A program made the position numbers and the translations under genes. Of a stretch of 64,000 nt of DNA, positions 128 through 12,979 are shown in pieces. The stretch comes from a phage. The notes beneath the pieces are model-generated. The model searched no databases. It had not been told where the DNA came from and saw nothing but the letters and a program-made list of their open reading frames with translations. The DNA is taken from sequence record NC_100327.1, one strand, 5' to 3'. How positions within the stretch are numbered: the stretch's first letter is position 1; the number at the start of each line of letters is the position of its first letter.

Positions 128-161
128 TGAGAATACCTATCATTGTGAGAATAGTTATCAT
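128..161. repeat. Two tandem copies of a 16-bp motif GAGAAY-N3-TATCATT
   Basis: gagaatacctatcatt at 128-143 and gagaatagttatcatt at 146-161; the same motif recurs at 11440-11455 and 11576-11591. Confidence 0.5.
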
Positions 162-494
162 TACGGGCAATTTAACATAATACCCATTATGCGCACCACT
201 GGCGATACATACAGGGATTGATAACATGGGTTACTGTTTACGCACATAACAATTATATTTCTTATTATTTGTGGGGGATATAGTTAGCAGCCAATAGATT
301 AGATATTGACCTGCAGACTTCTGACCGTCCAGACGTCTAAACGCCCACACAACAAGGATTATACATACAACACTGAATGTAAACAGGACCGCAAAAATGC
401 TACCATACAAGCTTGTAAATTTTTCATGCAGCACTTGACAAAGAGGAGAAAAACTTGTCTGACATAATGTGACCTAACTGACACAACATGACAC

Positions 495-590
495 TTTTAC
501 ACACCTATTAGTTTACACACTGGATTGTTTACATTCCTGATTGTTCACATGCTAACCATTTACATGATTGACTGTTTACACACCGATAAT
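495..590. repeat. Array of six direct repeats, core TTTACA(C/T)A, about 16-bp period (iteron-like; resembles DnaA-box 9-mer TTWTNCACA)
   Basis: Cores read at about 495, 512, 528, 544, 559 and 575; lies in a non-coding region. Confidence 0.5.
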
Positions 591-591
591 C

Positions 592-845
592 AGCCATGCC
601 ATTCGTTTGCATGACAATAATTATACATGACAATAATCGCACTGATTATAATTAGCATGACATAATATAAAAGCAGGGCAACTATTAGCAGATCTATAGT
701 TGCCTTGCTTGTTATGTCATAATTAACTAAATACAAGGCAACTATGATCTGATTAATAGTTTGCAGACAAACTATCACGGGGGTGATGGTTACTGCTTTT
801 ATATTATGTCGCGACTCCGTCGCGCCATGCCATTCGTTTGCATAG
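592..845. repeat. Pair of 20-bp direct repeats flanking a palindrome-rich segment
   Basis: gccatgccattcgtttgcat at 592-611 and 826-845; between them ggcaactat...atagttgcc palindromes and catgacaataat repeats. Confidence 0.5.
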
Positions 846-1449
846 TTGCCTTATTGTTACGAATAAAACAATTGCATTGTTAATGATTTCTTATCTTTCT
901 CTTAGTCATCTAATGATTCCAGTCAGTATAGTAATGTACAGTAAACATTAGACGACTAAAGATTTCTCTGTTTATTATAACTCACCGTTATAATTTCGAG
1001 CTGTTTACGAAAAATGTTGACATCCTAGCCGATTTATGTTATGCAGTTTACACGAATAATTATTTTATGCAGGTATTGACTATTCCGTTATTCTATGGTT
1101 GGAATAAATACTTAGCAGGCTATAGACTGGTGAGCGTACGTAAATTCTGAGATCTGGCGGCTATAGTTATACTCGATTTTTCACGTAGAACACGCTTTTG
1201 TGGTTATGTAAGTGCATGACTTATAAAGATTTTTAGTTGTTGACAAGATATTGGAGATGTGCATCAGGTTAAAATTTGTGCAATAGCGGCATTACGTGCA
1301 ATTTTGGAAGGTAAAACGGGTAAAAATGGCCTTGCTACCACACAATGAAAAATTATGCAATAGTTATTTTCCATGTATATTTGTACAGTGTGTGGGATTG
1401 ATGGCTCGTCAATTATTCCACTTGCCAGGTAGGGCCGTTTATGGTAGGA

Positions 1450-1486
1450 AAAGAGAAGACAAAAAGAAAGGGGCTTTAAGCCCCTG
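1450..1486 (-). terminator. Rho-independent terminator ending the early gene block
   Basis: Minus-strand hairpin aggggcttaaagcccct followed by TTTCTTTTTGTCTT, directly after the 1505-1768 stop. Confidence 0.6.
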
Positions 1487-1504
1487 ACCGTTCATCTTGT
1501 TGTA

Positions 1505-1768
1505 TTATTTGTTGCTCATCCAGTTTTCCCAAGCTGCCTGATAATCTGCCTCACTACGGCGGATCTCTTCTTGTTCTTCAAGTCGGATCTCTTCTTCCAG
1601 GTACCCCAAGATGTCAGCCTTTTTGGTCTGGCGTAGCATCCAGTCATCTTTTTTGCGGGTAAAGATCTTATAAGCTTTCTCGCAAACCTCTTTTTTGCTA
1701 CCTTTCTGGACTTCCAGAACACGATAAGCCATATATTGAACTAGTTTGAGCTGGTCAAGACGTTTCAT
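1505..1768 (-). CDS. hypothetical early protein (87 aa)
   Basis: ORF-track ORF; RBS AAGAGGAAAAACATC before the ATG; terminator downstream. Confidence 0.5.
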   Translation of the reverse strand: MKRLDQLKLVQYMAYRVLEVQKGSKKEVCEKAYKIFTRKKDDWMLRQTKKADILGYLEEEIRLEEQEEIRRSEADYQAAWENWMSNK

Positions 1769-1830
1769 GATGTTTTTCCTCTTTATGTGGTTTTTGTTTA
1801 GTGGGCCTTTTGGCCCGTGTCATTATCTTA

Positions 1831-2103
1831 TTACTTACGGCGGCAGAATTCAAGCGTTTTTAATTGATAATCTTCCTCAGCCTGGAGTACAACCGCCTCG
1901 ATCATTTCGTTGGCATTGTTGAAGCCATACCATTTAGCGAACTCATCCGCACCACCTTCGTGATCATGTTCTGCGTTCATCGCTTCCACGAAATGGAATT
2001 CAAGATTATTGAGATAAGGGCTTGATGTTCCGTCCTCTTTTTCGATGAGATCCCAAATAGCATTAAAACGTGATTCGACTTCTTGATTAATCCAGCTTGA
2101 CAT
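1831..2103 (-). CDS. hypothetical early protein (90 aa)
   Basis: ORF-track ORF; RBS AGAGAGGAAAACATT; promoter plus GC-rich leader element upstream. Confidence 0.5.
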   Translation of the reverse strand: MSSWINQEVESRFNAIWDLIEKEDGTSSPYLNNLEFHFVEAMNAEHDHEGGADEFAKWYGFNNANEMIEAVVLQAEEDYQLKTLEFCRRK

Positions 2104-2212
2104 AATGTTTTCCTCTCTTCTGGTTGTTGTGTGGGCACTTTTGCCCCTTCAAGATAAATGTTACCCCACCACCTGGCAGATGTCAACGGTTTTTATAGTT
2201 CTTATATGACAG

Positions 2213-2250
2213 GCAGGCCCGGTGATTGTCTCCCCCGTCGCCAGGTGCCT
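2213..2250 (-). promoter_or_regulatory. Conserved GC-rich promoter-proximal element, copy A (GGCAGGCACC..GACGGGGGAGACAATCACCGGGCCTGCC)
   Basis: Lies just downstream of the promoter at 2262-2289; near-identical copies at 11383-11420 and 11527-11568, each just downstream of a promoter. Confidence 0.5.
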
Positions 2251-2261
2251 GCCGTGTAATA

Positions 2262-2289
2262 AGTATAACAAAAAACAGGACCATTGCAA
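2262..2289 (-). promoter_or_regulatory. sigma70-type promoter (TTGCAA, 16 bp, TATACT)
   Basis: Hexamers read on the minus strand upstream of 1831-2103. Confidence 0.45.
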
Positions 2290-2313
2290 GCCCTGTTTTC
2301 TAGTTAATAAGGA

Positions 2314-2505
2314 TTATATTTTTTCGCCTATGTAGTCCGGTCGGTTTTTCTCTGTCATGCGCTTTAGCAATTCTTGCATGTTACTTATGGCTTGTAGTGT
2401 ATCCTCTTCCAGACTTGAATCAACATAATCAGGATCGTCTATGACCTTTCTATGATTATGATAACGCAGTACCGCCAATACCTTTCTAACTTGTTCAACA
2501 TTCAT
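2314..2505 (-). CDS. hypothetical protein (63 aa)
   Basis: ORF-track ORF tiling the minus-strand early block. Confidence 0.4.
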   Translation of the reverse strand: MNVEQVRKVLAVLRYHNHRKVIDDPDYVDSSLEEDTLQAISNMQELLKRMTEKNRPDYIGEKI

Positions 2506-2517
2506 TTTTATCGCTCT

Positions 2518-2652
2518 TTAAAACAAGGTGCCAACCGTTTCTAGTAGATCACTGACCACCAGGACAATACTGATCAGCACATATCTAACCATAAGGGGAA
2601 AGAGCGCCAGCGATCCCGCCACAATCCCCAAGGTAATGATTATCTTTTTCAC
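2518..2652 (-). CDS. small hydrophobic membrane peptide (44 aa, GTG start overlapping upstream stop as GTGA)
   Basis: Hand translation VKKIIITLGIVAGSLALFPLMVRYVLISIVLVVSDLLETVGTLF; two hydrophobic segments; fills the gap between 2505 and 2649; not in ORF track. Confidence 0.35.
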   Translation of the reverse strand: MKKIIITLGIVAGSLALFPLMVRYVLISIVLVVSDLLETVGTLF

Positions 2653-2939
2653 GGTTGACGGTTAACGTAAGCTTTACCGTTCACGGTTATGGGTAGATCC
2701 TCCAGGTCTGGATCTTCCTTAAGGTCGCGAGCAAGCTCACCGCACCGGATACCCTCGAATCCGTAGTACTCTGTTGTACCGTCATTAAAAGTTTTAGCGG
2801 CAAGGCATAAGCGATAAGTAACCCCGATTTGATTGACGGCATGGATATCCGTTAGATCAACCTCTTTTGCCAGCTCTTTAGCCATTACAGGCGCATTAAG
2901 TCCAACAACCAGGGCAACTACTGCGATCATCTTTTTCAT
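2649..2939 (-). CDS. small secreted/periplasmic protein with N-terminal signal peptide
   Basis: N-terminus MKKMIAVVALVVGLNAPVMA-KE is a typical Sec signal with an AxA cleavage site. Confidence 0.55.
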   Translation of the reverse strand: MKKMIAVVALVVGLNAPVMAKELAKEVDLTDIHAVNQIGVTYRLCLAAKTFNDGTTEYYGFEGIRCGELARDLKEDPDLEDLPITVNGKAYVNRQP

Positions 2940-3030
2940 TGTGTCTATCCTCTTTCTGCTACGTTTAAGGCGGCGGTAACCGCCTGTTTATGATTTATTG
3001 GTTAATTTTCAGGTATCGCTATAAATTAAA

Positions 3031-3255
3031 CTATGCTGTACGCTCAACTATAACAACGGTTTGAGGGATCTCACCTTCCACCACTATCAAGGCCTTTTTC
3101 TGCGTGATGGATATCTTTACCCGTTGCAGCGTGGCGGTGAAGTCTTTCATTTCGTCACGTGGTGTTTTAGTGCAATGCCAGATCTCAGGCTTACCTATTT
3201 GCAAGCCGCGTAAAAATTCTGTTTTACCTGTCTTATTCGTGATCATTTGATTCAC
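3031..3255 (-). CDS. hypothetical protein (74 aa)
   Basis: ORF-track ORF tiling the early block. Confidence 0.4.
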   Translation of the reverse strand: MNQMITNKTGKTEFLRGLQIGKPEIWHCTKTPRDEMKDFTATLQRVKISITQKKALIVVEGEIPQTVVIVERTA

Positions 3256-3256
3256 C

Positions 3257-3460
3257 TTAACCGATACCGTGGGAAGATAGGATCATGTTAGCCATAGTTG
3301 CAACCACTCCAACCGATAATGCCAGGCCAACTACTACAACCGTGAAAATTTTCTCTAACATGATTCTACCCTCATTAATGGGCGTTGCCTTATTGCCCCG
3401 CCCTACGAAATACAGTCTATCAAGTAATAAACTATTGTCAAGATTTATTTTACTTCCCAA
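3257..3460 (-). CDS. hypothetical small membrane protein; true start probably the internal ATG near 3361
   Basis: Track start is TTG; an ATG with RBS GAGGG (aatgagggtagaatcATG) would give a 34-aa hydrophobic peptide MLEKIFTVVVVGLALSVGVV... Confidence 0.35.
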   Translation of the reverse strand: MGSKINLDNSLLLDRLYFVGRGNKATPINEGRIMLEKIFTVVVVGLALSVGVVATMANMILSSHGIG

Positions 3461-3919
3461 ACGGAAAATTCACTACCTGGCGGAATCATCTTTTTAATCT
3501 TGTTTGCTGCTGCTACCAGATCCACGGCTTGTACTGTAATAATATAACCAATTGTCGAGGCTGTTGCGTTGAAAGTTTTCATTAAATTACCCTCATTAAT
3601 GGCGGGAAGTATTCCCGCGCTATGTAGTACACTTTACCAGATTGTTGACTGTTGTCAAACTATTTTAACGATAATCATCATATGCTTTATTGACCTGGCG
3701 AATATAACATTCAAAAGCTAGATCAATAGATTTATATTCACGGATATATTCACCATAGGAAACCACATACATTTCTATAGCTTCCTCATATGCGAGGAGA
3801 ATAGAATCTAAGCCTACGATCTCAGTCTTTGCAATAATAGCCATGATTTTTATCCTCTTTGTGGTTGGTGGGGCTTGTTGCCCCCTTTGATTTATATTCT
3901 ACAGTCTTATAAGGTCATG

Positions 3920-4153
3920 TCAACTATTTTCAAAAAATTTTTCTGCTGTAATATTTTTCCCGGTAGGGTTCGCTACTTTCAAAATTTTATCATGCACCGG
4001 ACGCCCGAAAGAATAAGATCCGTATACAGTAAACCAATAATTGCCGTCAGGCTGTACTATTACCGCCGCATGTGGTACGCCTTTTTCGTTTTTGCTGACA
4101 AAATAGATCACATTGCCATTAATAGCCTCGGCGCGTTTAATTTGTTCCATCAT
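3920..4153 (-). CDS. hypothetical protein (77 aa)
   Basis: ORF-track ORF; RBS TAGGTGA upstream; GC hairpin in 5' UTR. Confidence 0.45.
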   Translation of the reverse strand: MMEQIKRAEAINGNVIYFVSKNEKGVPHAAVIVQPDGNYWFTVYGSYSFGRPVHDKILKVANPTGKNITAEKFFENS

Positions 4154-4215
4154 GATGATTCACCTATCTTTATTTTTCATAGTTTCAGGAGGGGGCCTTT
4201 TCGGCCCCGCCAGGT

Positions 4216-4500
4216 TTATTTATTGATAGCGTGCAGCGGGAAAGGTACGCCAGGTTGATAGATAACCTTTACAACCTCATCAGGACAAAAGAAATTGCAG
4301 AACTCACCGCAATAGGCCTCATCCTCTTTCAACTCTTCATCAACATACTCAAAAAAGTAGTCGATGCTTGGATAATCTTGCCCTGGGTTATAGTCAACCA
4401 TTGTCAGGACTAGTTCAAGATCGTTGCGTAGGATATGCATACCCGCTTTTAAGTATTTTGCTTCCATTTTCACTACATCGCCAACGGTAACAATAGCCAT
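4216..4500 (-). CDS. hypothetical protein (94 aa)
   Basis: ORF-track ORF; RBS ATAGGAG before the ATG; promoter at 4561-4590. Confidence 0.5.
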   Translation of the reverse strand: MAIVTVGDVVKMEAKYLKAGMHILRNDLELVLTMVDYNPGQDYPSIDYFFEYVDEELKEDEAYCGEFCNFFCPDEVVKVIYQPGVPFPLHAINK

Positions 4501-4560
4501 GGTTTTAACTCCTATCTATCCGGTTAATGATTGGAGGCCTCGCCGCCCCCCCGACACCCT

Positions 4561-4590
4561 TTATTATCCATATTGTAGGACTTGATGCAA
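4561..4590 (-). promoter_or_regulatory. sigma70-type promoter (TTGCAT ... ATAATA) with AT-rich upstream region
   Basis: Read on the minus strand upstream of 4216-4500, downstream of the terminator at 4636-4673. Confidence 0.4.
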
Positions 4591-4635
4591 GTACTTCTTT
4601 AAAAATTTTTTAAGCGCCTTGGGGGCCGCTGTAAC

Positions 4636-4673
4636 GCCAAAATAATAAAGGCTATGCGGTTGCATAGCCTTTA
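4636..4673 (-). terminator. Rho-independent terminator
   Basis: Minus-strand hairpin aaaggctatgcaaccgcatagccttt followed by ATTATTTTGG, just after the 4708-5058 stop. Confidence 0.6.
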
Positions 4674-4707
4674 TGTGATTATATCGCTGCAGGCCCTGCC
4701 AGGGGCC

Positions 4708-5058
4708 TTATTTTGCATTCTTTCCTATATTGCCGCTACGGTACCAGCGTTTACGGTGAAAATGGTAATAATCACCATCGGCATTAAACATCAGATGATT
4801 TTCAATAACCAGCTTACGAAGGTGGGCCGGATCTTGTTCCATTCTTGCCAGATTCTGGCGGCTGTTACGTAAGCGGATAAATTCTATATTCAGGCCGTTG
4901 ATTGCAGCATGGATGTCAAAGTAACCACCTTTGAGACGTTCACGCATGGCGTTAAGCTCAACACAATATACAGATTTCTCACAAATCAAGGTATTAGCCA
5001 GGGCGCGGACCTGGGCAAGGGGGTTAAGCTCATTAAGGTAATATAGTTTTACTTTCAT
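4708..5058 (-). CDS. hypothetical protein (116 aa)
   Basis: ORF-track ORF; probably co-transcribed with 5076-5396. Confidence 0.5.
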   Translation of the reverse strand: MKVKLYYLNELNPLAQVRALANTLICEKSVYCVELNAMRERLKGGYFDIHAAINGLNIEFIRLRNSRQNLARMEQDPAHLRKLVIENHLMFNADGDYYHFHRKRWYRSGNIGKNAK

Positions 5059-5075
5059 AAAATCACCTGCTGAAA

Positions 5076-5396
5076 TTAGTTTGAGAAAACATCGTTCACA
5101 ATAGCGATCACAATGCCGCCCACCTTGTCACGGTCAACAATGCACAAATCACCATAGATCATGTGGTAGTCTGGATGATCTTTGACGGAATAGTCGATAA
5201 GTGTTTTCTTGTCATCCAGCTTACTAACTTCCATTCTCATAACGATATGAGAATCATCAAAGGCATTATTCCGAAAAGTCATAACCTGACCGCCAGGGCA
5301 CCCGGTGATTTCCACCTCCACGCCGTCTACGATCTGACCATCAAAGAAATAAAGATTATTAGCCTGGATAAACATGATCATTACTCCTTTTTGCAC
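5076..5396 (-). CDS. hypothetical protein; likely start is the ATG at 5375 (MFIQANN...)
   Basis: RBS AAGGAG lies 8 nt before the ATG at 5375; the track start is an upstream GTG. Confidence 0.5.
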   Translation of the reverse strand: MQKGVMIMFIQANNLYFFDGQIVDGVEVEITGCPGGQVMTFRNNAFDDSHIVMRMEVSKLDDKKTLIDYSVKDHPDYHMIYGDLCIVDRDKVGGIVIAIVNDVFSN

Positions 5397-5417
5397 TGAT
5401 TATTTTAACAGGGTTTA

Positions 5418-5447
5418 AATTTACTTTATTGATGGCCCTGGAGTCAA
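5418..5447 (-). promoter_or_regulatory. sigma70-type promoter (TTGACT ... TAAATT) inside a palindromic element
   Basis: -35 sits in the palindrome gatggccctggagtcaaggccatc; part of a repeated 45-bp element also at 9155-9200 and 9776-9820. Confidence 0.45.
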
Positions 5448-5466
5448 GGCCATCTAAAAATAAATT

Positions 5467-5667
5467 TTACAGGCCTACAATCTCTTTAATTCGTTTTACT
5501 GCTGCCTCAGCGCCTTGAGGGTAAAAATTATGGTAACCAATCACGCGAGTGATACTAATCGCCGTTTGATGATCTTCATAATCACCTTTAAAGATTTCTT
5601 GACCGTCAATCAGCACGGCAATTTTTTCTTCTTTTTTGAAGTTAATAACGCGGATATTGTTGCTCAT
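5467..5667 (-). CDS. hypothetical protein (66 aa)
   Basis: ORF-track ORF; RBS AAAGGAG; 5' hairpin ggggagacactcccc; promoter at 5727-5755. Confidence 0.45.
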   Translation of the reverse strand: MSNNIRVINFKKEEKIAVLIDGQEIFKGDYEDHQTAISITRVIGYHNFYPQGAEAAVKRIKEIVGL

Positions 5668-5726
5668 TTTGTTTCTCCTTTTGGAACTTTGTCTATGCGG
5701 TGGGGAGTGTCTCCCCGTTGATTGTT

Positions 5727-5755
5727 ATTATCCACATTCCGGGACCGGATTGCAA
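5727..5755 (-). promoter_or_regulatory. sigma70-type promoter (TTGCAA, 17 bp, GATAAT)
   Basis: Read on the minus strand; followed by a 5' hairpin and RBS of 5467-5667. Confidence 0.45.
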
Positions 5756-5954
5756 CACCCCGGAAGAATTTTTTTTTTTTTTAAAGATAGGCCCCCATGA
5801 TCGGGGGGCCGTTCTTAGTTACTTACAGCGATAAAGTACATCCCTACCCCTAACAATATTTCAAGGGCGATGATCTCAAGCCATACCATAACACGGCGCG
5901 CCTTATCGGTGCGGGGCTTATCCTTGGGTGTCATCGTCTCCCCCTTTCCCCCTG

Positions 5955-6194
5955 TTAGTAGTGACGTGGTTTACAATGGCCCCCAGGAGTACCATCACTA
6001 CGCACACCACAAGAAAAATTATCTCTGTCGTTGTTCGATCCATTGTTATAAAATTCCTCAAGATCAGGCTTGAAAATAAAGCGTTCGTTATTGAATCCAT
6101 CACGCCAGGCGGCTGGCTTCAAATCTTCACTAAAGGGATTAATTAACGTGGCATTATTTAAACGGTTGGCCCACATATTTTCTATTCCTCTCAA
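5955..6194 (-). CDS. hypothetical protein (79 aa)
   Basis: ORF-track ORF; same-strand tiling. Confidence 0.4.
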   Translation of the reverse strand: MRGIENMWANRLNNATLINPFSEDLKPAAWRDGFNNERFIFKPDLEEFYNNGSNNDRDNFSCGVRSDGTPGGHCKPRHY

Positions 6195-6525
6195 ATAGGC
6201 GATCCGCCTCAGTTAAACATATCTCATGGGCTTGATCTCTGGTTTTAGCCTCATCGAAAACTTGTTGTGCCAGGCTGCAGCGTAGGGAGACTGGAAGATC
6301 ACTATAATAGGCGTTGACAAACGTTTGAGCGTCGTACAGGTCTGAAAATACTTTACCCTTTCTATTATTCCCCTTGTCAACAATTGCAAGGATAACAAGT
6401 ACAATAGTTGCAACCACCCCCAGGAAAATAGATATAATAAACCATAAAAAGGCGGATCTACCCATCTTGCCAGCGATCCAGGCGTTGAACAAGGCAACTA
6501 CTACAGCCAAAATAATAAATTCCAT
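6154..6525 (-). CDS. membrane protein with two N-terminal transmembrane helices; start ATG at 6525 (MEFIILAVVV...)
   Basis: RBS AAAGAGG before the ATG at 6525; hydrophobic stretches EFIILAVVVALFNAWIA and FLWFIISIFLGVVATIVLVILAIV. Confidence 0.5.
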   Translation of the reverse strand: MEFIILAVVVALFNAWIAGKMGRSAFLWFIISIFLGVVATIVLVILAIVDKGNNRKGKVFSDLYDAQTFVNAYYSDLPVSLRCSLAQQVFDEAKTRDQAHEICLTEADRLFERNRKYVGQPFK

Positions 6526-6589
6526 TCTATGTACCTCTTTTGCAGTTCTGTTTAACAATAAGGCGGCAAATATGCCGCCTGTTACCTGA

Positions 6590-6970
6590 TTAAAAATTAT
6601 CGCCGTAAATCTTTCCGCTTTCTGCCCACACCACCACGCGGGGCATGTTATCCCATACGTCTTGTTTTAGATTGAGCGCGTGCAATTCTTCGGTGGTGCC
6701 CATACCGGGCACGGGCTGATTGTATACTGCAAAACGACCACCCGCATAGTCATAGGCCAGGGTTAAATCACACTGGATCATCTTTTTGATCATGGCGTTG
6801 AGCATAGCGTTAGCCGCATACTGGTCACGTTTTAGGGGCAACTCTTTGATTAGTTTGCGATAGTTTTCAATGTGATCGCACACTGTTTCACGTGGAAGAT
6901 CTTTCATATCTTCACGGAATGTAACCAGGTTAAACATAACGGTGTCAATAGCCTTGGTAGTGTTTTTCAT
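6590..6970 (-). CDS. hypothetical protein (126 aa)
   Basis: ORF-track ORF; promoter at 7024-7051 and 5' hairpin at 6995-7014. Confidence 0.5.
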   Translation of the reverse strand: MKNTTKAIDTVMFNLVTFREDMKDLPRETVCDHIENYRKLIKELPLKRDQYAANAMLNAMIKKMIQCDLTLAYDYAGGRFAVYNQPVPGMGTTEELHALNLKQDVWDNMPRVVVWAESGKIYGDNF

Positions 6971-7023
6971 AATGTTTTCCTCTTTGTTTTGTGTGGGGCA
7001 AACGTCTTGCCCCCTTGAGTTTT

Positions 7024-7051
7024 AATATAGCAGGTTTTTAGGTTATTGCAA
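7024..7051 (-). promoter_or_regulatory. sigma70-type promoter (TTGCAA, 16 bp, TATATT)
   Basis: Read on the minus strand; transcript would start just before the hairpin ggggcaaacgtcttgcccc. Confidence 0.4.
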
Positions 7052-7059
7052 CACTTTAT

Positions 7060-7683
7060 TTATGAAAAAGTCATCTCGCCATATTCATCCACATCAAACC
7101 GCCAATCATTGGCCTCAATAAGGCCGATCAGGTTTTCGGTAGTAAACTGTTCAAGATAGGCCTCCTCCAGGTCTACGTAAACCTTGCGGGATAGCTCCCG
7201 TACCGTCTCGGTGATCAGCTCTTCCAGGTCTTCCACTTTGTTTTCTTGTTTGGCGGTCAGATCTAGCCAGGCGGTATCAATGTATCCGCTTACAGTGTTT
7301 TCGTGACTATAGCGGCTATATGGATCACGCTCAACACTGGCTGATAACTCGCCATCGTGCATTGTGCCGAACAAGTGACGAATTGATCGGAACTTGGTCA
7401 GGGCCCTTACTTTACGCAAAAATTTTTCTAAATCCACGTTTTCAGCACTGATTGACGCGCCGTCACCCTGGCACCAAAAGCCTGACCAATGTACTTCGGT
7501 ATCTTCAAGGCCATACTCTGGAAAAACATATTCTTTATAGTATTCAATTACACTTTCTGCAAAAAAGTTATCCCCGCTGTGTTCTTCTCTTTCGCGGACC
7601 ATTTCAACGGCTTTTTCTTTTTGTTCGTCGGTCAGCACGTCGAAAGATAAATTGTAACCTGCGGTAATGTTAACGGTGGTCAT
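7060..7683 (-). CDS. hypothetical protein (207 aa)
   Basis: ORF-track ORF; RBS AGGAGAAAATATC before the ATG; promoter and 5' hairpin upstream. Confidence 0.55.
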   Translation of the reverse strand: MTTVNITAGYNLSFDVLTDEQKEKAVEMVREREEHSGDNFFAESVIEYYKEYVFPEYGLEDTEVHWSGFWCQGDGASISAENVDLEKFLRKVRALTKFRSIRHLFGTMHDGELSASVERDPYSRYSHENTVSGYIDTAWLDLTAKQENKVEDLEELITETVRELSRKVYVDLEEAYLEQFTTENLIGLIEANDWRFDVDEYGEMTFS

Positions 7684-7739
7684 GATATTTTCTCCTATTT
7701 TCTTTGTTAGTGGCGGGAAGTTTTCCCGCCTGTGTGTTT

Positions 7740-7767
7740 AAGTATACTTATTGAGGCTTACTTGTCA
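7740..7767 (-). promoter_or_regulatory. sigma70-type promoter (TTGACA, 16 bp, TATACT)
   Basis: Read on the minus strand; followed by 5' hairpin ggcgggaaaacttcccgcc (7712-7730) and RBS. Confidence 0.5.
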
Positions 7768-8018
7768 ACACTATTTTTTAAATTATTGTGGCGTAAAATG
7801 TTTAGAATCTCTTCAACGTCATCAACACGGCGGCAATTTTTAAACGCTACCAATTGCCCCCGGATCTTAATCACTGGGCGGCCTTGCCAGTGCCCCTGGA
7901 GAAAGCGCGCTTTAACTTTATCGGTGGAACTATCACGCCACCAAACGGCCTTATTATTGCAGTAGTAAAAATTATTCAGGACAACATCGACTTTATCAAA
8001 ATTTTTTAATTTACGCAT
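7758..8018 (-). CDS. hypothetical protein (86 aa)
   Basis: ORF-track ORF; RBS AAAGGGG; promoter at 8054-8082. Confidence 0.5.
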   Translation of the reverse strand: MRKLKNFDKVDVVLNNFYYCNNKAVWWRDSSTDKVKARFLQGHWQGRPVIKIRGQLVAFKNCRRVDDVEEILNILRHNNLKNSVDK

Positions 8019-8053
8019 GGCGTTTACCCCTTTCTTCTTGCTTTGATGTGGTT

Positions 8054-8082
8054 AGTATATCCAGGCGATTCCAAGGTGTCAA
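8054..8082 (-). promoter_or_regulatory. sigma70-type promoter (TTGACA, 17 bp, TATACT)
   Basis: Both hexamers read on the minus strand upstream of 7758-8018. Confidence 0.5.
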
Positions 8083-8252
8083 GCTTTAAATAAAAGATAT
8101 TTTTAACACCATAAAACGGTCCTGGGTGATGTTTTCAGGCTAAGAAAGGGGATTGCATAGGTAGGGGCTTTTGTGGCGTTTGTGGTGCCAACCAGGGGCG
8201 CTATTCGTAGGATAGAAATAAAAAGCCCCGCACAATGGCGGGGCGTTGGTTG

Positions 8253-8474
8253 TTATTTGCCTTTGTGGCGGTATCGTTCCGCCTGTCGTTCACGTTCCAA
8301 AAGCAGGCCCGGTAATTTGCGATCATAGTGATTCCTCCAGATCTTCCCGAACCTTTTCGGTTTATTCAGTTTATTGTTACGCTGGCGGCGTTCCGGCAGC
8401 TCTTCGGAATCGTGGGGGCGCTTTACAATTTTTTCGAAATTAATTTTCATAAATTTCCCCTTTACTAATTTCAA
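8253..8474 (-). CDS. hypothetical basic protein (73 aa)
   Basis: ORF-track ORF; Lys/Arg-rich. Confidence 0.4.
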   Translation of the reverse strand: MKLVKGKFMKINFEKIVKRPHDSEELPERRQRNNKLNKPKRFGKIWRNHYDRKLPGLLLERERQAERYRHKGK

Positions 8475-8793
8475 TATTTGCCTGAATCGCCCGGATACGA
8501 CGTTTTATGACCTCCTGATCCTTGCAATCATATCCCCAAAAGTCTACGATCTTTGCGCCTCCGGCCTTTAGGCGGTATAGTGTTTCCTGCATCTTGTAAG
8601 CTGGGATCGGTCGCGGTGTTACCTGGTCGCCTCTCTCATCTTTGTACTTGATTATGTAGTCTTCGTTGTCGTTGAATACCCAAAATGGGTATTCTGTGAG
8701 CGCGTTGCTATCTTTTTCGTTTTTAGATTGGATCTTGTTTACAATTAAAGCCGTAGCAATAGCGCCAATAATAAAACTAGCCCCGCTGATCAT
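8440..8793 (-). CDS. membrane-anchored protein; start ATG at 8793 (MISGASFIIGAIATALIV...)
   Basis: RBS AAAGGAGAAAG before the ATG at 8793; N-terminal transmembrane helix. Confidence 0.5.
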   Translation of the reverse strand: MISGASFIIGAIATALIVNKIQSKNEKDSNALTEYPFWVFNDNEDYIIKYKDERGDQVTPRPIPAYKMQETLYRLKAGGAKIVDFWGYDCKDQEVIKRRIRAIQANIEISKGEIYEN

Positions 8794-8867
8794 GTACTTT
8801 CTCCTTTCATGGTGTTGATAAATTATCTTTATAGATGGCCCTGCAGCCAGGACCACCGAAAAAATAA

Positions 8868-9113
8868 CTATTTCACAATGCCTACAAAACAGATCCCGCC
8901 TTCACCTATATAAGCAATATCGGTCACTTTATAACTTGTCAAGATCTGCTTATTTAGTTCATTAATAAAATCGGTCATTGCGTTGGTGTAGTTGTCTTCC
9001 GTGTCTAAGGCATAATCCCAGGTGTACACCTTTTTACGTCCGAAGCCTTTTACCATGATACGGGCGCTTTTGGTGTTGGTAGGGGCATAATATTTGGTGA
9101 TTAGTGCTGCCAT
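8868..9113 (-). CDS. hypothetical protein (81 aa)
   Basis: ORF-track ORF; RBS TAGGAG; promoter at 9155-9184. Confidence 0.45.
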   Translation of the reverse strand: MAALITKYYAPTNTKSARIMVKGFGRKKVYTWDYALDTEDNYTNAMTDFINELNKQILTSYKVTDIAYIGEGGICFVGIVK

Positions 9114-9154
9114 GGTTTTAACTCCTATGCATTAGTTCAGTGTTAACAGTATAA

Positions 9155-9184
9155 AGTTTACTTTATTGATGGCCCTGGTGTCAA
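9155..9184 (-). promoter_or_regulatory. sigma70-type promoter (TTGACA ... TAAACT) inside palindrome gatggccctggtgtcaaggccatc
   Basis: Second copy of the 45-bp palindromic promoter element. Confidence 0.45.
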
Positions 9185-9202
9185 GGCCATCTAAAAATAA
9201 GC

Positions 9203-9544
9203 TTACTCGTTTTCTTCCAGCTCCGCAAGCTCTTCTTTTGCTTCTTCTAACTCTGTCTGTAATTCCTGGTATTCTTCATCGTCCTCAATATCCAGGCTGT
9301 CGATGTAGTCGCTAAATCCGCAGCGGTAAGCGATAGGATCTAGCTCCTTGAGGATACGCGACGGAAGAAAAGAAATGTTTCCGATCATAATTTCGCCGTA
9401 GATCTCGTCTAACCATTCATCATAGTTTTCGTCGTACTTGTCCTCGTCGATTTCAAAGTTATCGATCTTATTCTCAAGGTCTGCGATCTGTTTTTTCAGT
9501 TCAGCGATCTGCATAGCTTTTTCTGAGGCGGTCATAGTAGTCAT
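9203..9544 (-). CDS. highly acidic coiled-coil protein (113 aa)
   Basis: ORF-track ORF; very Asp/Glu-rich; RBS AAAAGGAGAAAAAC; promoter at 9596-9623. Confidence 0.5.
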   Translation of the reverse strand: MTTMTASEKAMQIAELKKQIADLENKIDNFEIDEDKYDENYDEWLDEIYGEIMIGNISFLPSRILKELDPIAYRCGFSDYIDSLDIEDDEEYQELQTELEEAKEELAELEENE

Positions 9545-9595
9545 GGTGTTTTTCTCCTTTTGTGTGTTCTGGGAAGTTTTCCCGTTTATGTGCTT

Positions 9596-9623
9596 ATTAT
9601 ATCGATTTAAGTTAGCTTGTCAA
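9596..9623 (-). promoter_or_regulatory. sigma70-type promoter (TTGACA, 16 bp, TATAAT)
   Basis: Consensus hexamers on the minus strand; 5' hairpin then RBS of 9203-9544. Confidence 0.55.
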
Positions 9624-9626
9624 TTA

Positions 9627-9743
9627 AAAGTTTAAGAAAAATTTTGCGACACCGTTGGCGCTACCCATCAACATTTGCGCCAGGATGTACCCAATGATGC
9701 AAACGATGATGGTTACCTTTGTGTGCTGGCGTGTAGTGCTCAT
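9627..9743 (-). CDS. small hydrophobic membrane peptide (39 aa)
   Basis: Hand translation MSTTRQHTKVTIIVCIIGYILAQMLMGSANGVAKFFLNF; RBS GGAGG; own promoter at 9776-9805; not in ORF track. Confidence 0.35.
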
Positions 9744-9775
9744 CTTTAAGCCTCCTTTTCCGCTCAACTGTGGTT

Positions 9776-9805
9776 AGTTTACTTTATTGATGGCCCTGGT
9801 GTCAA
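9776..9805 (-). promoter_or_regulatory. sigma70-type promoter (TTGACA ... TAAACT) inside palindrome gatggccctggtgtcaaggccatc
   Basis: Third copy of the 45-bp palindromic promoter element. Confidence 0.45.
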
Positions 9806-9823
9806 GGCCATCTAAAAATAAAC

Positions 9824-10219
9824 TCAATAAGTTTTTAGTACTTTCCCGTCCAATCTGTCAAGCTGGATCTCGATAGCTGCAGAAAACCTATTGTAAACCA
9901 CATCGCCCAGGGAGTCCAGCCAATCTATGACGTTATATACCTGCTCTTTATTCTTGCAAGTCCGGATCCGTTTCATTACGTAAGACGGATCAATATTAGC
10001 GCTCTCGTTGTTGTGGTCCTGCGCCTGGCCTGCTGCGCTAGTTATAGATTTTACAACCACCTGAAAGGGCTTTAAGGTGCCTTTTGCGTTCATCTCACGC
10101 GCTTTTGCGGCGCGGTTGTTATATGTTACACAACGGCGGCAAATGTTGACCAAATGCATATCAATAATTTTTTCATCGTTTGCCAGTTCGTTCATGATGC
10201 GGCGTACGTTCTTATTCAT
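9824..10219 (-). CDS. hypothetical protein (131 aa)
   Basis: ORF-track ORF; promoter at 10268-10297 and 5' hairpin gcgggaaacattcccgcc. Confidence 0.5.
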   Translation of the reverse strand: MNKNVRRIMNELANDEKIIDMHLVNICRRCVTYNNRAAKAREMNAKGTLKPFQVVVKSITSAAGQAQDHNNESANIDPSYVMKRIRTCKNKEQVYNVIDWLDSLGDVVYNRFSAAIEIQLDRLDGKVLKTY

Positions 10220-10267
10220 GATCTTTTTCCTTTGTGCTGGCGGGAAACATTCCCGCCTTTTGTGTCT

Positions 10268-10297
10268 AGTTTACTTAAATTTTGCAGCGTGTCAATG
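10268..10297 (-). promoter_or_regulatory. sigma70-type promoter (TTGACA ... TAAACT)
   Basis: Read on the minus strand upstream of 9824-10219. Confidence 0.45.
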
Positions 10298-10301
10298 ATT
10301 T

Positions 10302-10700
10302 TTATTCGTGGGCGCATGTTACAATGTGTTTTTTATAGCCCAGGTGGTCAGCAAGTGCCGACAAAAACTTTTCTTCGTAGATCCAGCCGTCGGCAGTGAT
10401 CCCCATAGCATTTAATGCGCTCTCAAGTGCTGCGTTAGCTTTATCGTAACCGTGACCGCTCGCCTTGCCGCCAGTATAACCGTACTTATTGTTCTTGTTG
10501 TCGTGAATCCAAAACACGCAGTAGTGAGTGTTCCCGCTGGCGGCGGCATAATACCGGATCTCAGCTACTTCGTGCAAATTATTGTCATCGTCCAGGCCCA
10601 CCAGATTATAAGCCTTGTAAAATCCACGATCACGGCGGCAGTTCTTGACATCAGAAAAAGAAAAGTCCGCATTATCAAAATTAAAGGTAGTGGTTTTCAT
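10302..10700 (-). CDS. hypothetical protein (132 aa)
   Basis: ORF-track ORF; RBS AAGAGGATAAAATC; promoter at 10733-10761. Confidence 0.5.
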   Translation of the reverse strand: MKTTTFNFDNADFSFSDVKNCRRDRGFYKAYNLVGLDDDNNLHEVAEIRYYAAASGNTHYCVFWIHDNKNNKYGYTGGKASGHGYDKANAALESALNAMGITADGWIYEEKFLSALADHLGYKKHIVTCAHE

Positions 10701-10732
10701 GATTTTATCCTCTTAGTGTCTTTTGTGCTTTT

Positions 10733-10761
10733 AGTGTATTTGGTGTCGGACTATATGTCAA
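10733..10761 (-). promoter_or_regulatory. sigma70-type promoter (TTGACA, 17 bp, TACACT)
   Basis: Read on the minus strand upstream of 10302-10700. Confidence 0.45.
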
Positions 10762-10764
10762 TAC

Positions 10765-10962
10765 TTATTTTTTATTAAACCAGTGGTTGATCTGTCCTTT
10801 TGTCAGGGCGCAACGATTAAGCTGTTGCCGGGTATAGCTCTGACCGCGACGGAATTTATAAAGGCCTTGCCCGTTGTTGATGGTTACGTCCACCTGGCAA
10901 ACCATTTGATCGGTGACCACCTGGCGAGTGTTGCGACGTACTTTGATCCCGTATGCGTTCAT
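10765..10962 (-). CDS. hypothetical basic protein; start ATG at 10962 (MNAYGIKVRR...)
   Basis: RBS AAAGAGGA before the ATG; the track start lies inside promoter 11013-11040, so the true start is downstream. Confidence 0.45.
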   Translation of the reverse strand: MNAYGIKVRRNTRQVVTDQMVCQVDVTINNGQGLYKFRRGQSYTRQQLNRCALTKGQINHWFNKK

Positions 10963-11012
10963 AAATTTATCCTCTTTACTGGTTAGTGCGGTGTTGTTCA
11001 CCTTGTAGGGTA

Positions 11013-11040
11013 ATAATACCATGATTAACCTTGTTGTCAA
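11013..11040 (-). promoter_or_regulatory. sigma70-type promoter (TTGACA, 16 bp, TATTAT)
   Basis: Read on the minus strand upstream of 10765-10962. Confidence 0.5.
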
Positions 11041-11339
11041 CGATTATTTTAAATTATTTTTATGATAGAATCCACCTGCCGCCCCCGCCAGGTTAACCAC
11101 CATTTTTTCGTACTCTTCTTTATGTTCCCGCGCTTCTGTATCATTAATCACTACATTTCCAGGTGAGTAGCATTACCTTTCATTTTTGTACCTCCTCTTC
11201 AATTGTTTACCCTACAGCATGGGCCTACCAGGTTTGCAAGATTTCACCCTCTCCCACCTGGTCAGTTAGGTCCTGCCAGGCTGGCCCCGCCAGGTTGCAG
11301 CGGTTAGCGCATCAGGTTAGAAAAATTTTTTGAAAAGTG

Positions 11340-11368
11340 TTGACAGCGGCCCCGACAGGTGGCACAAT
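11340..11368 (+). promoter_or_regulatory. sigma70-type promoter (TTGACA, 17 bp, CACAAT) reading into the non-coding region
   Basis: Plus-strand hexamers; GC-rich element copy B begins about 15 nt downstream. Confidence 0.4.
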
Positions 11369-11382
11369 ATACCTATCGAAAG

Positions 11383-11420
11383 GACGGCAGGCACCGGTGA
11401 CGGGGGAGACAACCACCAGG
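11383..11420 (+). promoter_or_regulatory. Conserved GC-rich promoter-proximal element, copy B
   Basis: ggacggcaggcaccggtgacgggggagacaaccaccagg; followed at 11440-11455 by GAGAACGGTTATCATT. Confidence 0.5.
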
Positions 11421-11483
11421 GATGAGCGCTGCATAAAATGAGAACGGTTATCATTATCATTTAAAAATTTATGCAAAAAATCC

Positions 11484-11511
11484 TTGCTTTCTTTGTCCTG
11501 TGTGATACTAT
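11484..11511 (+). promoter_or_regulatory. candidate sigma70-type promoter (TTGCTT, 16 bp, TACTAT; overlapping TATAAT)
   Basis: Plus-strand hexamers just upstream of GC-rich element copy C. Confidence 0.35.
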
Positions 11512-11526
11512 AATAACAAGCCGGGG

Positions 11527-11568
11527 CAACAGGGGCCGGGAGACAATCACCGGGCCTGCCCGTTATTC
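11527..11568 (+). promoter_or_regulatory. Conserved GC-rich promoter-proximal element, copy C
   Basis: caacaggggccgggagacaatcaccgggcctgcc; followed at 11576-11591 by GAGAATGATTATCATT. Confidence 0.5.
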
Positions 11569-11707
11569 TGCAAACGAGAATGATTATCATTCAAGATTCT
11601 AAATGAGAACTCCTCGCATTTAATAAATTTAATTAGCACGCTAATTACCCTCCGTAACAATTTACTATAAAATAGTATCCACTAAAATATTCCCATATAG
11701 AAATTTT

Positions 11708-11884
11708 AAAAATCCATTTCTGAAAACGAAAAATCGATTTCGTCCCCAAAAATTTCAGGTTGAGAGCCGGAACGATTTCCAGAAAATCCGATTCAGAAAA
11801 CGAAAAACAGATCGAGTACTGAGAAATTTATCGAGAAAAATTTTCAGAAAATCCAAGCCCTGAAATGAAAAGTAGATCGAGTAC
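11708..11884. repeat. Iteron-like array of three about 40-bp direct repeats (core GAAAATCC..GAAAACGAAAAA..GATCGAGTAC)
   Basis: Units at about 11708-11742, 11781-11819 and 11845-11884; related partial copies near 12059-12100 and 12140-12160. Confidence 0.5.
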
Positions 11885-12196
11885 CTGGAAAGCTGCACCG
11901 CAACTTCAAGATAGCGGTTAGATTGTTACCATAGAAGGTCAAGGGTAAGTGGAGGAAGTTCTAGTAGAGGGAGGTTAGCATGTGTGGGAAATCTATAATG
12001 GTGGCCTGGAATATGGTGCAAACGATAGAATGAGTTATTCAGCTTGTCGCGCCTACTCTGAAAAATCCATTTTAGTTTTCGATCCATTTTCTGATTTTCT
12101 AAGAATTTTAAAATATCCAGCCCGGTGAAATATCAAAAGGAGGAAATCCATTTTAGAAATCCCCCTTATACTTGATATGCCAGGAATTTTCAAGTA

Positions 12197-12526
12197 TCAG
12201 TTGTCTTTGTTTTTAGGTTTGTACATGCGCAGAGGTATGGTCTTTGTAACATTCCATTTCCTCAACCCTTCCCAGCTCCAGTTGTGGGCGTGGTATCCGG
12301 TTATGCATGCACTACTGGAGTGATCGTAAGCATAAGAGAACGCTAAGCGCACCAGGTGGGGCCAGTCCTTCCATGGTTGTGGACCGTAAGCTTTTCTCCA
12401 ACACCGACACAAACTAAATGTCTCAAGGATAGGAAGGATAACAAATCCATACACCGCCACCAGAATAGCCAGCGCAATGATTGTCAGGAATACATACCCT
12501 GCAGTTGAAATGATGATCTCTGTCAT
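12197..12526 (-). CDS. membrane protein (109 aa)
   Basis: ORF-track ORF; hydrophobic N-terminal segment. Confidence 0.45.
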   Translation of the reverse strand: MTEIIISTAGYVFLTIIALAILVAVYGFVILPILETFSLCRCWRKAYGPQPWKDWPHLVRLAFSYAYDHSSSACITGYHAHNWSWEGLRKWNVTKTIPLRMYKPKNKDN

Positions 12527-12958: not shown

Positions 12959-12979
12959 AACTTTATCTCCTGGACTTTC

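Follow-up and report, generated by a model that had tools for sequence, protein, structure and literature searches.

Promoter and hairpin cassettes in the early gene block

The window, a 64,000-nucleotide (nt) stretch of phage DNA (sequence record NC_100327.1), was found to contain repeated cassettes in which a strong sigma-70-type promoter is coupled to a GC-rich hairpin in front of a small gene. The cassettes lie in a block of approximately 28 small minus-strand genes (34–207 amino acids) at positions 1505–11040, and the coupling of promoter and hairpin occurred far beyond chance. In the most economical reading, to which we give about an even chance, each intercistronic boundary carries one hairpin that would serve as an RNA nuclease barrier, not as a terminator. 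The best explanation is that this block is an rV5-like phage's variable early region, put together from composite regulatory cassettes.

In a nucleotide search, bases 1505–11040 showed 97–98% identity over their full length to Escherichia phages pangalan, nimi, and EdH4, and more than 70 further Vequintavirus (rV5-like) records covered at least 80% of this region. The window belongs to an rV5-like coliphage of the genus Vequintavirus, and its coordinates are those of the EdH4 record. Nine block proteins, among the largest, were scanned; they had PHROG matches only to families of unknown function, and no Pfam domain scored above the curated cut-off in them. A further 22 records named "Campylobacter phage" (MG0656xx, host C. 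jejuni) were 93–96% identical to the block, and their host labels look doubtful.

A consensus scan of 1505–11040 detected 13 minus-strand sigma-70 sites with at least 10 of 12 consensus matches and no site of this quality on the plus strand, which bore out the claim of an earlier note on this DNA, made from the sequence alone, that at least twelve near-consensus minus-strand promoters precede small genes. Twelve of the 13 were intergenic and lay immediately 5' of a Shine-Dalgarno sequence and ATG; the exception, at 7999, was within a gene. At a threshold of at least 9 of 12 matches, 16 intergenic promoters were found, and addition of a weak site at 4590 (8/12) gave the 17 promoters used in the tests (-35 boxes at 11040, 10761, 10295, 9805, 9623, 9184, 8082, 7768, 7051, 5755, 5447, 4590, 3923, 3658, 3441, 2289, and 2186). 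AT-rich runs were present 5' of every -35 box. Transcription start sites are predictions, not mapped positions, and were assumed to lie 7 nt after the -10 box.

The intergenic gaps were sorted into four classes (A to D) by promoter and hairpin layout. Class A comprised nine units, possibly ten, with the order promoter, GC-rich hairpin, A/C-rich leader, Shine-Dalgarno sequence, and ATG. The hairpin started 10–12 nt past the -10 hexamer in every class A unit, and the distance from hairpin to ATG varied from 18 to 34 nt. Hairpins of -6.5 kcal/mol or stronger had their starts in 3.2% of the 3-nt windows on the minus strand of the block; the probability that at least 8 of the 17 promoters carry one at an offset of 10–12 nt was 2e-8; with every offset from 0 to 20 nt allowed, it was 0.01. 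Promoter-like strong sites at 13–64 kb of the window were mostly without a downstream hairpin. The statement in the earlier note that most transcripts begin just before a hairpin holds for the nine, possibly ten, class A units, that is, for only about 55% of the promoters. The pattern was more mixed than had been claimed, with three cases of a stem-loop at the -35 box, three promoters without a hairpin, and four hairpins without a promoter. Counted by position beside a promoter, 9–10 stem-loops were downstream, three were around the -35 box, and one formed a predicted promoter-coupled terminator. The hairpin quoted as the example, ggcgggaagttttcccgcc, was correctly noted and is the plus-strand reading of the P7768 hairpin at 7712–7730.

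With a start site 7 nt past the -10 box, 4–6 unpaired 5' nt would precede the class A hairpin, and with a start 8–9 nt past it, 2–4 nt. The predicted 42–53-nt leaders folded into the hairpin, and the Shine-Dalgarno sequence was mostly left unpaired. The class A copies shared hexamers, hairpin type (63–76%), and leader style, with no common 100-bp consensus. Between hairpin and Shine-Dalgarno sequence, the class A, B, and C leaders contained hardly any G or U (for example acacaaaacaaagagg and accaaccacaaagagg), a bias specific to the sense strand; such leaders would leave the ribosome site accessible and may increase translation.

The sequence that follows the stem in classes A and B was A/C-rich (for example actaacaaag, agcacaaagg, and aataaagtaa), and the mean number of T in the first 8 nt after the stem was 1.3 in 95 distinct units from all loci. 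Because of the missing U-tracts and the A/C-rich tails, the class A and B hairpins do not appear to be canonical terminators, and the absence of U-tracts would argue against efficient intrinsic termination at these sites. Two class A hairpins are labeled "terminator" in the EdH4 record (record positions 3871–3885 and 10218–10236); neither has a U-tract, and the labels are doubtful.

Hairpin structure and signs of strand-specific selection

Class B consisted of a 49-nt repeat with a 10-bp stem around the -35 hexamer, present in three units (copies 92–98% identical) and a degenerate fourth copy (71%). All 28 copies in the window and six relatives had a perfect 10-bp stem with 1–3 G·U pairs in the sense RNA only. 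The antisense strand had C·A mismatches in their place, and the folding energies were -16.3 kcal/mol for sense versus -12.4 kcal/mol for antisense. Variation was confined to the loop. The fourth copy, which is without a -35 box, still has the stem, and the strand difference was larger in it (sense -16.4 versus antisense -7.6 kcal/mol). Owing to the sense-only G·U pairs and the retention of the stem after loss of the -35 box, the class B stem-loop, which is a single repeat family, seems to be selected as sense RNA, in read-through transcripts, and independently of promoter function.

In class A, many different stems kept their pairing at the same position, and changes within one orthologous hairpin in FFH2, S127, and ECP2303 kept or restored pairs, although such cases were few. 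Structure, not sequence, thus appears to be the conserved property of these hairpins. An alignment of 47 class A hairpins with MAFFT and RNAalifold yielded no consensus structure because the stems and loops vary in length, and a scan of IMG/VR for unbiased orthologues with a hairpin-blind flank pattern recovered a single contig. A scan of positions 1–13000 against Rfam (E of at most 1) gave only a chance-level match to Clostridium-PBP (36.8 bits versus a gathering score of 94.4).

In ECP2303 (L006 7448), the loop GACGT of the P7051 hairpin (6995–7013) was inverted to ACGTC with the stem kept. Similarly, the loop of the P10295 hairpin (10239–10257), ATGT in the window, was ACAT in DrSchubert (L003 10277), with a 1-nt loss and the stem kept. 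Loop inversion of this kind looks like a signature of template switching in DNA palindromes.

Occurrence in related phages and proposed shuffling of cassettes

The comparison of early blocks showed that stem-loops tied to promoters characterize the entire rV5-like group (Vequintavirinae and Stephanstirmvirinae). Phapecoctavirus ESCO13 and Justusliebigvirus phi92 had the same architecture 5' of mostly unrelated small genes; their hairpins started 10–11 nt past the -10 box, and the initial transcribed motif gtatcac(a/g)taGGGCGG recurred. More distant early blocks were fetched through a shared early protein, phi92 gp231, from Klebsiella phage KP13-16, Cronobacter phage CR3, Salmonella phage SSE121, and Pectobacterium phage CB7. 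In CR3 and CB7 the stem-loop was usually within the 17-nt spacer (for example ttgacGCCGGGacggtTCCCGGCttataat), and in KP13-16 and SSE121 its arms usually lay on either side of the -10 hexamer. A minority of units in these four blocks had a downstream-type hairpin with the same cacataGGGCG motif. The motif cac(a/g)taGGGCGG was common to ESCO13, phi92, CR3, SSE121, and the window.

Hairpins of -9 kcal/mol or stronger were present in 60 of 80 promoter windows versus 53 of 210 random windows from the same blocks of seven phages (odds ratio 8.9, p = 1e-14). The hairpin offset peaked at 10 nt (44 of 95 distinct units). Stem-loop positions fell into discrete classes, with the preferred class depending on the genus, and they were confined to sequence-neutral promoter slots: the -35 loop, the spacer, the -10 loop, or from about +4 onward. 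BLAST searches with single units returned matches in Vequintavirus only (116–120 records), so that the cassettes cannot be followed from genus to genus by sequence similarity.

Gene content was compared between the window and six Vequintavirus relatives, and the joints were read directly. In this small sample, gene content differed at four sites. At P3658, homology to FFH2 and ECP2303 spanned the UP stretch and the -35 box (TTGACAACA) and then switched to a different spacer, the hairpin AGGTGGTAGAATGATCCGCCACCT, and a different gene of 81 amino acids. In S127 the gene at this site was deleted, with the joint in the leader and Shine-Dalgarno sequence (agaagagg.aaaca..ATGaaa). S127 also had an additional promoter and gene cassette at the P8082 -35 box, with the repeated sequence ttttatttaaagcTTGACA on both flanks and a joint between two -35/UP stretches at 8095. 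In ECP2303 an additional gene adjoined the composite terminator-promoter at 2273–2305. Within the limits of this sample, the joints match the idea, put forward for the promoter early stem-loop (PeSL) cassettes of T4-type phages, that conserved regulatory cassettes may supply homology for modular shuffling. The earlier note had spoken of designed mRNA stabilization; inherited and shuffled cassettes would be the better description, since insertion and deletion joints fall inside the units.

Proposed function and alternative explanations

Each cassette consists of an AT-rich UP-like stretch, a strong sigma-70 promoter, a GC-rich stem-loop, a G/U-poor leader, a strong Shine-Dalgarno sequence, and a small gene of unknown function. 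In the nuclease-barrier reading, the class A hairpin, predicted to lie 3–6 nt from the 5' end of its own mRNA, would hinder 5'-end-dependent attack, namely RppH conversion followed by RNase E entry or scanning. In read-through transcripts, hairpins of classes A, B, and C would block 3' exonucleases or mark processed ends, and each small cistron would gain a protected boundary. The A/C-rich leader would keep the ribosome-binding site unpaired. The stem-loop may have been squeezed into whichever promoter slot tolerates one, and the conserved cassettes may also provide homology for gene shuffling, whether or not this is a by-product, as has been suggested for T4-type PeSLs.

The class A hairpins would fit an action on the unit's own transcript, such as 5'-proximal stabilization, because their offset from the promoter is fixed, their distance from the ATG is variable, U-tracts are missing, and the hairpin is kept at five of the eight promoters that follow a terminator. 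The same offset was also found in units with unrelated initial transcribed sequences. Hairpins at the 5' end are known to stabilize Escherichia coli mRNAs and to impede RppH (review PMC3997798). Richards and Belasco reportedly showed in 2019 that RNA structures also obstruct the scanning of RNase E from the 5' end; obstruction of this kind would work even with few unpaired 5' nt.

Several observations weigh against the nuclease-barrier reading. The predicted 4–6 unpaired 5' nt are borderline for classical 5'-end protection and, going by what Emory and colleagues reportedly found in 1992, would be at or beyond its limit. Certrevirus and other genera have the stem-loop on the upstream side of the start site, so that it falls outside its own transcript, and 5' protection therefore cannot be the universal role or the whole story. 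Class C hairpins occur without promoters, which counts against a purely 5'-terminal role. The constant offset could come from shared cassette ancestry or mark the first position that spares promoter melting. The class B evidence comes from one repeat family with few independent events, and the class B stem-loop lies upstream of its own start site. For class A no sense-strand bias was seen (11 versus 20; sense-versus-antisense folding, p = 0.24), and the stems consist of nearly all Watson-Crick pairs, so RNA-level selection is not demonstrated for this class. Furthermore, the authors of the PeSL study showed terminator activity for one RB49 stem-loop (PMC2839356), and attenuation may therefore also play a part here. 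The interpretation of the stem-loops as 5' stabilizers or a processing signal, which the earlier note had offered, is thus partly supported; it gains from the promoter-anchored offset, the conserved structure, the missing U-tracts, and the retention after terminators, and it loses from the outside position in relatives, the lack of a G·U sense bias in class A, and the borderline 5' spacing.

Attenuation or termination of transcription arriving from the upstream cassette, which would insulate the genes and leave the promoter offset as an effect of tight packing, is a possible but doubtful explanation; for T4-type PeSLs it has been proposed and in part demonstrated. It would account for the rule that an intergenic gap has a single hairpin whether or not a promoter is present, and for the variation in position across genera (-35 box, spacer, -10 box, or +5). 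Downstream lacZ expression fell as strongly with an RB49 PeSL stem-loop as with rrnB T1 (PMC2839356), promoter-coupled terminators reportedly occur widely among bacteria (bioRxiv 10.64898/2026.08.19.745784) and have a case that is clear by its layout in the window at 2262–2302, and the EdH4 annotators labeled two class A hairpins as terminators. However, the A/C-rich class A and B tails with a mean of 1.3 T in 8 nt do not suit this function, the block has canonical T-run terminators where ends are expected, the hairpin is still present at most promoters (5/8) right after a terminator, and the hairpin keeps its distance to the promoter and not to the upstream stop codon. That the palindromes matter at the DNA level only, as hot spots for recombination or template switching or as hitch-hikers of duplicated cassettes with no RNA function, is quite unlikely. 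The mapped joints were in the -35/UP and leader/Shine-Dalgarno stretches and none was in a stem, stems of unrelated sequence share position and stability, the G·U pairs of class B are confined to the sense strand, and the hairpins persist in two phage subfamilies; these points stand against the near-perfect Watson-Crick pairing of class A stems without strand bias, the loop inversions between orthologues (P7051 in ECP2303 and P10295 in DrSchubert), the insertion and deletion joints within cassettes, and the clear interrelation of many copies, all of which a DNA-level role would explain.

The hairpins might instead be protein sites, for boxB/nut-like antitermination, a translational repressor, or a DNA operator at +4 to +22 for the shut-off of early promoters, and this is improbable. 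The fixed promoter-proximal position is compatible with binding of a protein, several genera share a dominant subfamily (GCGGGAA-N3-TTCCCGC with AAT(G/A)G-type loops), and the block contains terminators that would need read-through. On the other hand, both stems (GGCGGGAA, GGGGCAAG, GGGGAG, GGGGC, and GGGCA) and loops (AAC, TGT, GACGT, ACA, AACAA, and AAAG) vary within one genome, orthologous loops can be inverted, no Rfam match was obtained, and there are more than 10 sites per block versus one or two in nut-type systems. The least credible proposal, termination of antisense (plus-strand) transcription, would take the T/G-rich plus-strand tails of several hairpins, the complement of the A/C-rich initial transcribed region, as terminator tails, and it is extremely improbable. 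The consensus scan did list 7712–7730, 10239–10257, 6995–7013, 3870–3884, 2968–2985, and 9570–9584 as plus-strand terminator-like, but most tails are interrupted (TGTGTGTT and CTTGAGTT), the complementary tail in ESCO13 and phi92 (CTACGTGATAC) is not T-rich, and no strong plus-strand promoter faces into the block.

Several other candidates were rejected. The stems, of only 5–10 bp, are too short for RNase III sites, and CsrA sites were rejected because GGA occurs in stems and not in loops. N4-type hairpin promoters were dismissed in view of the clear sigma-70 boxes and the absence of a virion RNA polymerase, and a single DNA operator in view of the diversity of the stems. A lambda-type nut/boxB system did not correspond to the variable and invertible loops, the more than 10 sites, and the lack of an Rfam match.

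The nuclease-barrier reading also has an extension, which we consider unlikely: a hairpin 3–6 nt from the 5' end could be a form of self-marking, with the phage boosting the decay of host mRNA and its own early messages escaping. An Srd-like protein would accelerate RNase E-dependent decay of host mRNA, every early phage message, primary or processed, would start with a hairpin that blocks 5'-end sensing or scanning, and the cassettes would protect each newly acquired gene on arrival. The open reading frame at 38807–39850, the first of a plus-strand unit, matched a PHROG HNH endonuclease family (E = 8e-113) and had weak matches to two further families, the Srd anti-sigma factor and a decoy of host sigma-70. 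The weak matches agree with the description of gp11 of rV5 as Srd-like (PMC3606486). The T4 Srd protein stimulates RNase E on host mRNA, according to a citation of Qi et al. (2015) in PMC4980113.

Relation to known systems

PeSL cassettes are known from the T4-type phages RB49/phi1, PST, and nt-1 (Arbiol et al., 2010, PMC2839356; Comeau et al., 2014, PMC4122927). As in the window, an AT-rich stretch precedes a sigma-70 early promoter close to consensus, a GC stem-loop, often of the form G-run, loop, and C-run, lies beside the promoter, and a Shine-Dalgarno sequence and start codon follow. The copies likewise recur in a variable region, where short gaps separate small genes of unknown function, and joints of gene insertion, deletion, and replacement between close relatives lie inside the cassettes. 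The lineage differs, being rV5-like here and not T4-like. The hairpin in the window is commonest at about +4 to +22, in its own 5' leader, whereas in RB49 the stem-loop occupies the spacer or covers the -10 box, and in PST it is upstream of the promoter. Most hairpins in the window are without U-tracts. Outside the 49-nt class B repeat, the copies resemble one another less than would correspond to the approximately 100-bp PeSL consensus. Terminator activity and mini-circles formed by recombination between elements are features of the T4-type system. The cassettes would thus be PeSL-like by function and anatomy, not members of the PeSL family by descent, because the window is from a Vequintavirus and not from a T4-like myovirus.

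The ompA and papA leaders and engineered 5' hairpins of bla resemble the predicted class A transcripts in having a stable hairpin of any sequence very near the 5' end, an unstructured leader, and a strong ribosome-binding site. Such 5' stem-loop stabilizers (Emory, Bouvet and Belasco, 1992, as reviewed in PMC3997798) are known to hinder RppH and 5'-end-dependent RNase E. The element in the window differs in being repeated on about ten tandem small phage genes, with 5' ends that are predicted only.

In the promoter-coupled terminators described by Fletcher et al. (2026; bioRxiv 10.64898/2026.08.19.745784), the stem-loop doubles as the -35 region, a T-tract lies just 5' of the -10 box, and the RNA 3' end is about 10 bp upstream of the start site. 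The sequence of segment 2262–2302 has exactly this arrangement of stem-loop, -35 region, T-tract, and -10 box. Class B shares a -35 box inside the stem-loop and differs in having no T-tract after the stem. The class A layout, with a hairpin downstream of the start site, is not described in that study.

The rV5 genome paper (Kropinski et al., 2013, PMC3606486) reported 33 sigma-70-type promoters and 20 terminators genome-wide, and promoters were also reported in the Certrevirus paper (Buttimer et al., 2020, PMC7344957). These maps resemble the window in having sigma-70-like promoters with UP-like stretches among short hypothetical early genes. They differ in that promoter-tied stem-loops are mentioned in neither, including hairpins behind promoters in rV5. 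In the searched literature, for which one search was poorly designed, no transcriptome, start-site, 3'-end, or half-life data for rV5-like phages or Vequintavirinae were found. The promoter and stem-loop cassettes are apparently undescribed for rV5-like phages in that literature, and the downstream hairpin position in the Escherichia phages appears to be distinctive.

Strong host-type early promoters in these phages, 5' hairpin stabilizers, and promoter-stem-loop cassettes are already known; as it stands, the result is a sound comparative observation that would not surprise specialists. If the nuclease-barrier reading is true, rV5-like phages, which are common in therapy and typing and are represented in the BASEL collection, would use a portable cassette that fixes transcription, message stability, and translation for each small early gene. 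The cassette would also supply homology for gene swapping between phages, which would explain the high variability of early regions. Further, the PeSL idea would be extended from T4-like phages to two more subfamilies, database labels that call these hairpins terminators would be corrected, and compact natural parts with promoter, 5' hairpin, and ribosome-binding site would become available for E. coli engineering.

Individual units, hairpins, and terminators

All class A units are on the minus strand. The P10295 unit (10219–10295) has a promoter at 10268–10295 (TTGACA, 16 nt, TAAACT) and the hairpin GGCGGGAATGTTTCCCGCC at 10239–10257 (-13.1 kcal/mol), followed by an A/C-rich leader and a Shine-Dalgarno sequence before ATG 10219 (gene 9824–10219). 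A perfect promoter (TTGACA, 16 nt, TATAAT) at 9596–9623 starts the P9623 unit (9544–9623), in which the hairpin GGGAAAACTTCCC at 9571–9583 is weak (-4.0 kcal/mol) and the ATG is at 9544 (gene 9203–9544). In the P7768 unit (7683–7768), the promoter at 7741–7768 is followed by a hairpin at 7712–7730 (-13.1 kcal/mol) and ATG 7683 (gene 7060–7683). The P7051 unit (6970–7051) consists of a promoter at 7024–7051 (TTGCAA, 16 nt, TATATT), a hairpin at 6995–7013 (-11.1 kcal/mol), and ATG 6970 (gene 6590–6970). For P5755 (5667–5755), which comes directly after the terminator-like hairpin at 5790–5810, the promoter is at 5727–5755 (TTGCAA, 17 nt, GATAAT), the hairpin at 5702–5716 (-9.0 kcal/mol), and the ATG at 5667 (gene 5467–5667).

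P4590 (4500–4590) is the possible tenth unit. It has a weak promoter with 8/12 matches (TTGCAT 4585–4590, 16 nt, GATAAT 4563–4568) and a hairpin core, read from the sequence, at approximately 4533–4550, 12 nt past the -10 box, with ATG 4500 (gene 4216–4500). The remaining units are P3923 (3844–3923; promoter 3896–3923; hairpin 3870–3884, -9.1 kcal/mol; ATG 3844; gene 3665–3844), P3658 (3582–3658; promoter 3631–3658; hairpin 3602–3618, -9.8 kcal/mol; ATG 3582; gene 3445–3582), P3441 (3361–3441; promoter 3414–3441; hairpin 3380–3403, -13.4 kcal/mol; ATG 3361; gene 3257–3361), and P2186 (2103–2186; promoter 2158–2186; hairpin 2133–2146, -6.8 kcal/mol; ATG 2103; gene 1831–2103). The cross-genus motif cgtaGGGCGG precedes the P3441 hairpin.

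The class B units, also on the minus strand, are at 9743–9824 (repeat 9776–9824; stem-loop 9789–9812; -35 TTGACA 9800–9805; -10 TAAACT ending at 9776; ATG 9743), 9113–9203 (repeat 9155–9203; stem-loop 9168–9191 around the -35 box at 9184; ATG 9113), and 5375–5466 (repeat 5418–5466; stem-loop 5431–5454 around the -35 TTGACT at 5447; ATG 5375). The stem-loops of P9805, P9184, and P5447 are upstream of the start site. In the degenerate copy (8793–8869, minus strand; repeat 8821–8869; ATG 8793), the stem-loop at 8834–8857 is kept with G·U pairs and the -35 box is lost.

Class C comprised four minus-strand gaps in which a hairpin is followed by a leader and a Shine-Dalgarno sequence, with no convincing promoter. 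The hairpin at 6561–6580 has a weak T-rich tail and is weakly terminator-like, with ATG 6525 located 35 nt downstream. Those at 4192–4208 (upstream of ATG 4153) and 2968–2985 (upstream of ATG 2939) have neither a promoter nor a U-tract. The hairpin at 1803–1816 has a weak 8/12 promoter 8 nt upstream and precedes an A/C-rich leader, a Shine-Dalgarno sequence, and ATG 1768.

Three minus-strand promoters formed class D. P11040 (11013–11040), which drives the gene starting at 10962, is followed only by ggtgaacaacacc (-3 kcal/mol), not a real hairpin. P10761 (10733–10761) is without a hairpin and has a 26-nt leader before ATG 10700; P8082 (8054–8082; ATG 8018), likewise without a hairpin, is preceded by the canonical terminator at 8225–8244. 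In the EdH4 annotation, the ATG start of gene 10765–11022 falls in the P11040 spacer. ATG 10962, with a good Shine-Dalgarno sequence, is a better start for this gene and is annotated as such in DrSchubert, FFH2, and S127.

Terminators were also present on the minus strand. The canonical intrinsic terminator at 8225–8244 has seven G-C pairs followed by TTTTTATTT, that at 4645–4674 has a 13-bp stem followed by TATTTTGG, and the block is closed at 1469–1485 by AGGGGCTTAAAGCCCCT followed by TTCTTTTTGT. A weaker terminator-like hairpin at 5790–5810 is followed by TATCTTT and a run of 14 A; these 14 uninterrupted A (5769–5782, minus strand) lie between the hairpin and P5755. Another canonical hairpin with a T-run forms the predicted promoter-coupled terminator of P2289 (2262–2302); its stem-loop spans 2269–2302 with the -35 TTGCAA in the loop, T6 is in the spacer, and the -10 TATACT ends at 2262.

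Other sequence features

A GC-rich element of approximately 45 nt (GGCAGGCACC.GG.GACGGGGGAGACAAYCACC.GGG...) occurred in three copies, at 2213–2252 (minus strand), about 11385–11425 (plus strand), and about 11525–11570 (plus strand). Each lies directly 3' of a promoter-like site: P2289 on the minus strand, and TTGACA at 11340 and TATAAT near 11510 on the plus strand. The elements contain no open reading frame, and the minus copy and the two plus copies flank the early block in inverted orientation. Copy 1 folded to -24.4 kcal/mol (z = -3.25), and the other two copies were not significant. The elements could be a small RNA or another cis element. The motif TGAGAAYRGTTATCATTA was found at 128–163 (two in tandem, at the left end), 11439–11456, and about 11575–11592; the latter two copies adjoin two of the GC-rich elements, and a protein might bind to the motif.

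The non-coding gap upstream of the block contained three direct repeats of about 57 nt at 11696–11891 (spacing 65–74 nt; family D2, 63–74% identity). At the other end, positions 1–1500 of the window are non-coding and dense in short repeats, including GTGTAAAC-like words, CAAGGCAACTATAG-like words, and two copies of GCCATGCCATTCGTTTGCAT (593–612 and 824–843), and they carry an inverted repeat at 659–676/793–810. This region may correspond to the "non-coding" box of the rV5 map and is possibly an origin or terminal region. Additionally, divergent back-to-back promoters were identified at 38799 (minus strand) and 38813 (plus strand), where the long minus-strand unit switches to a plus-strand unit.

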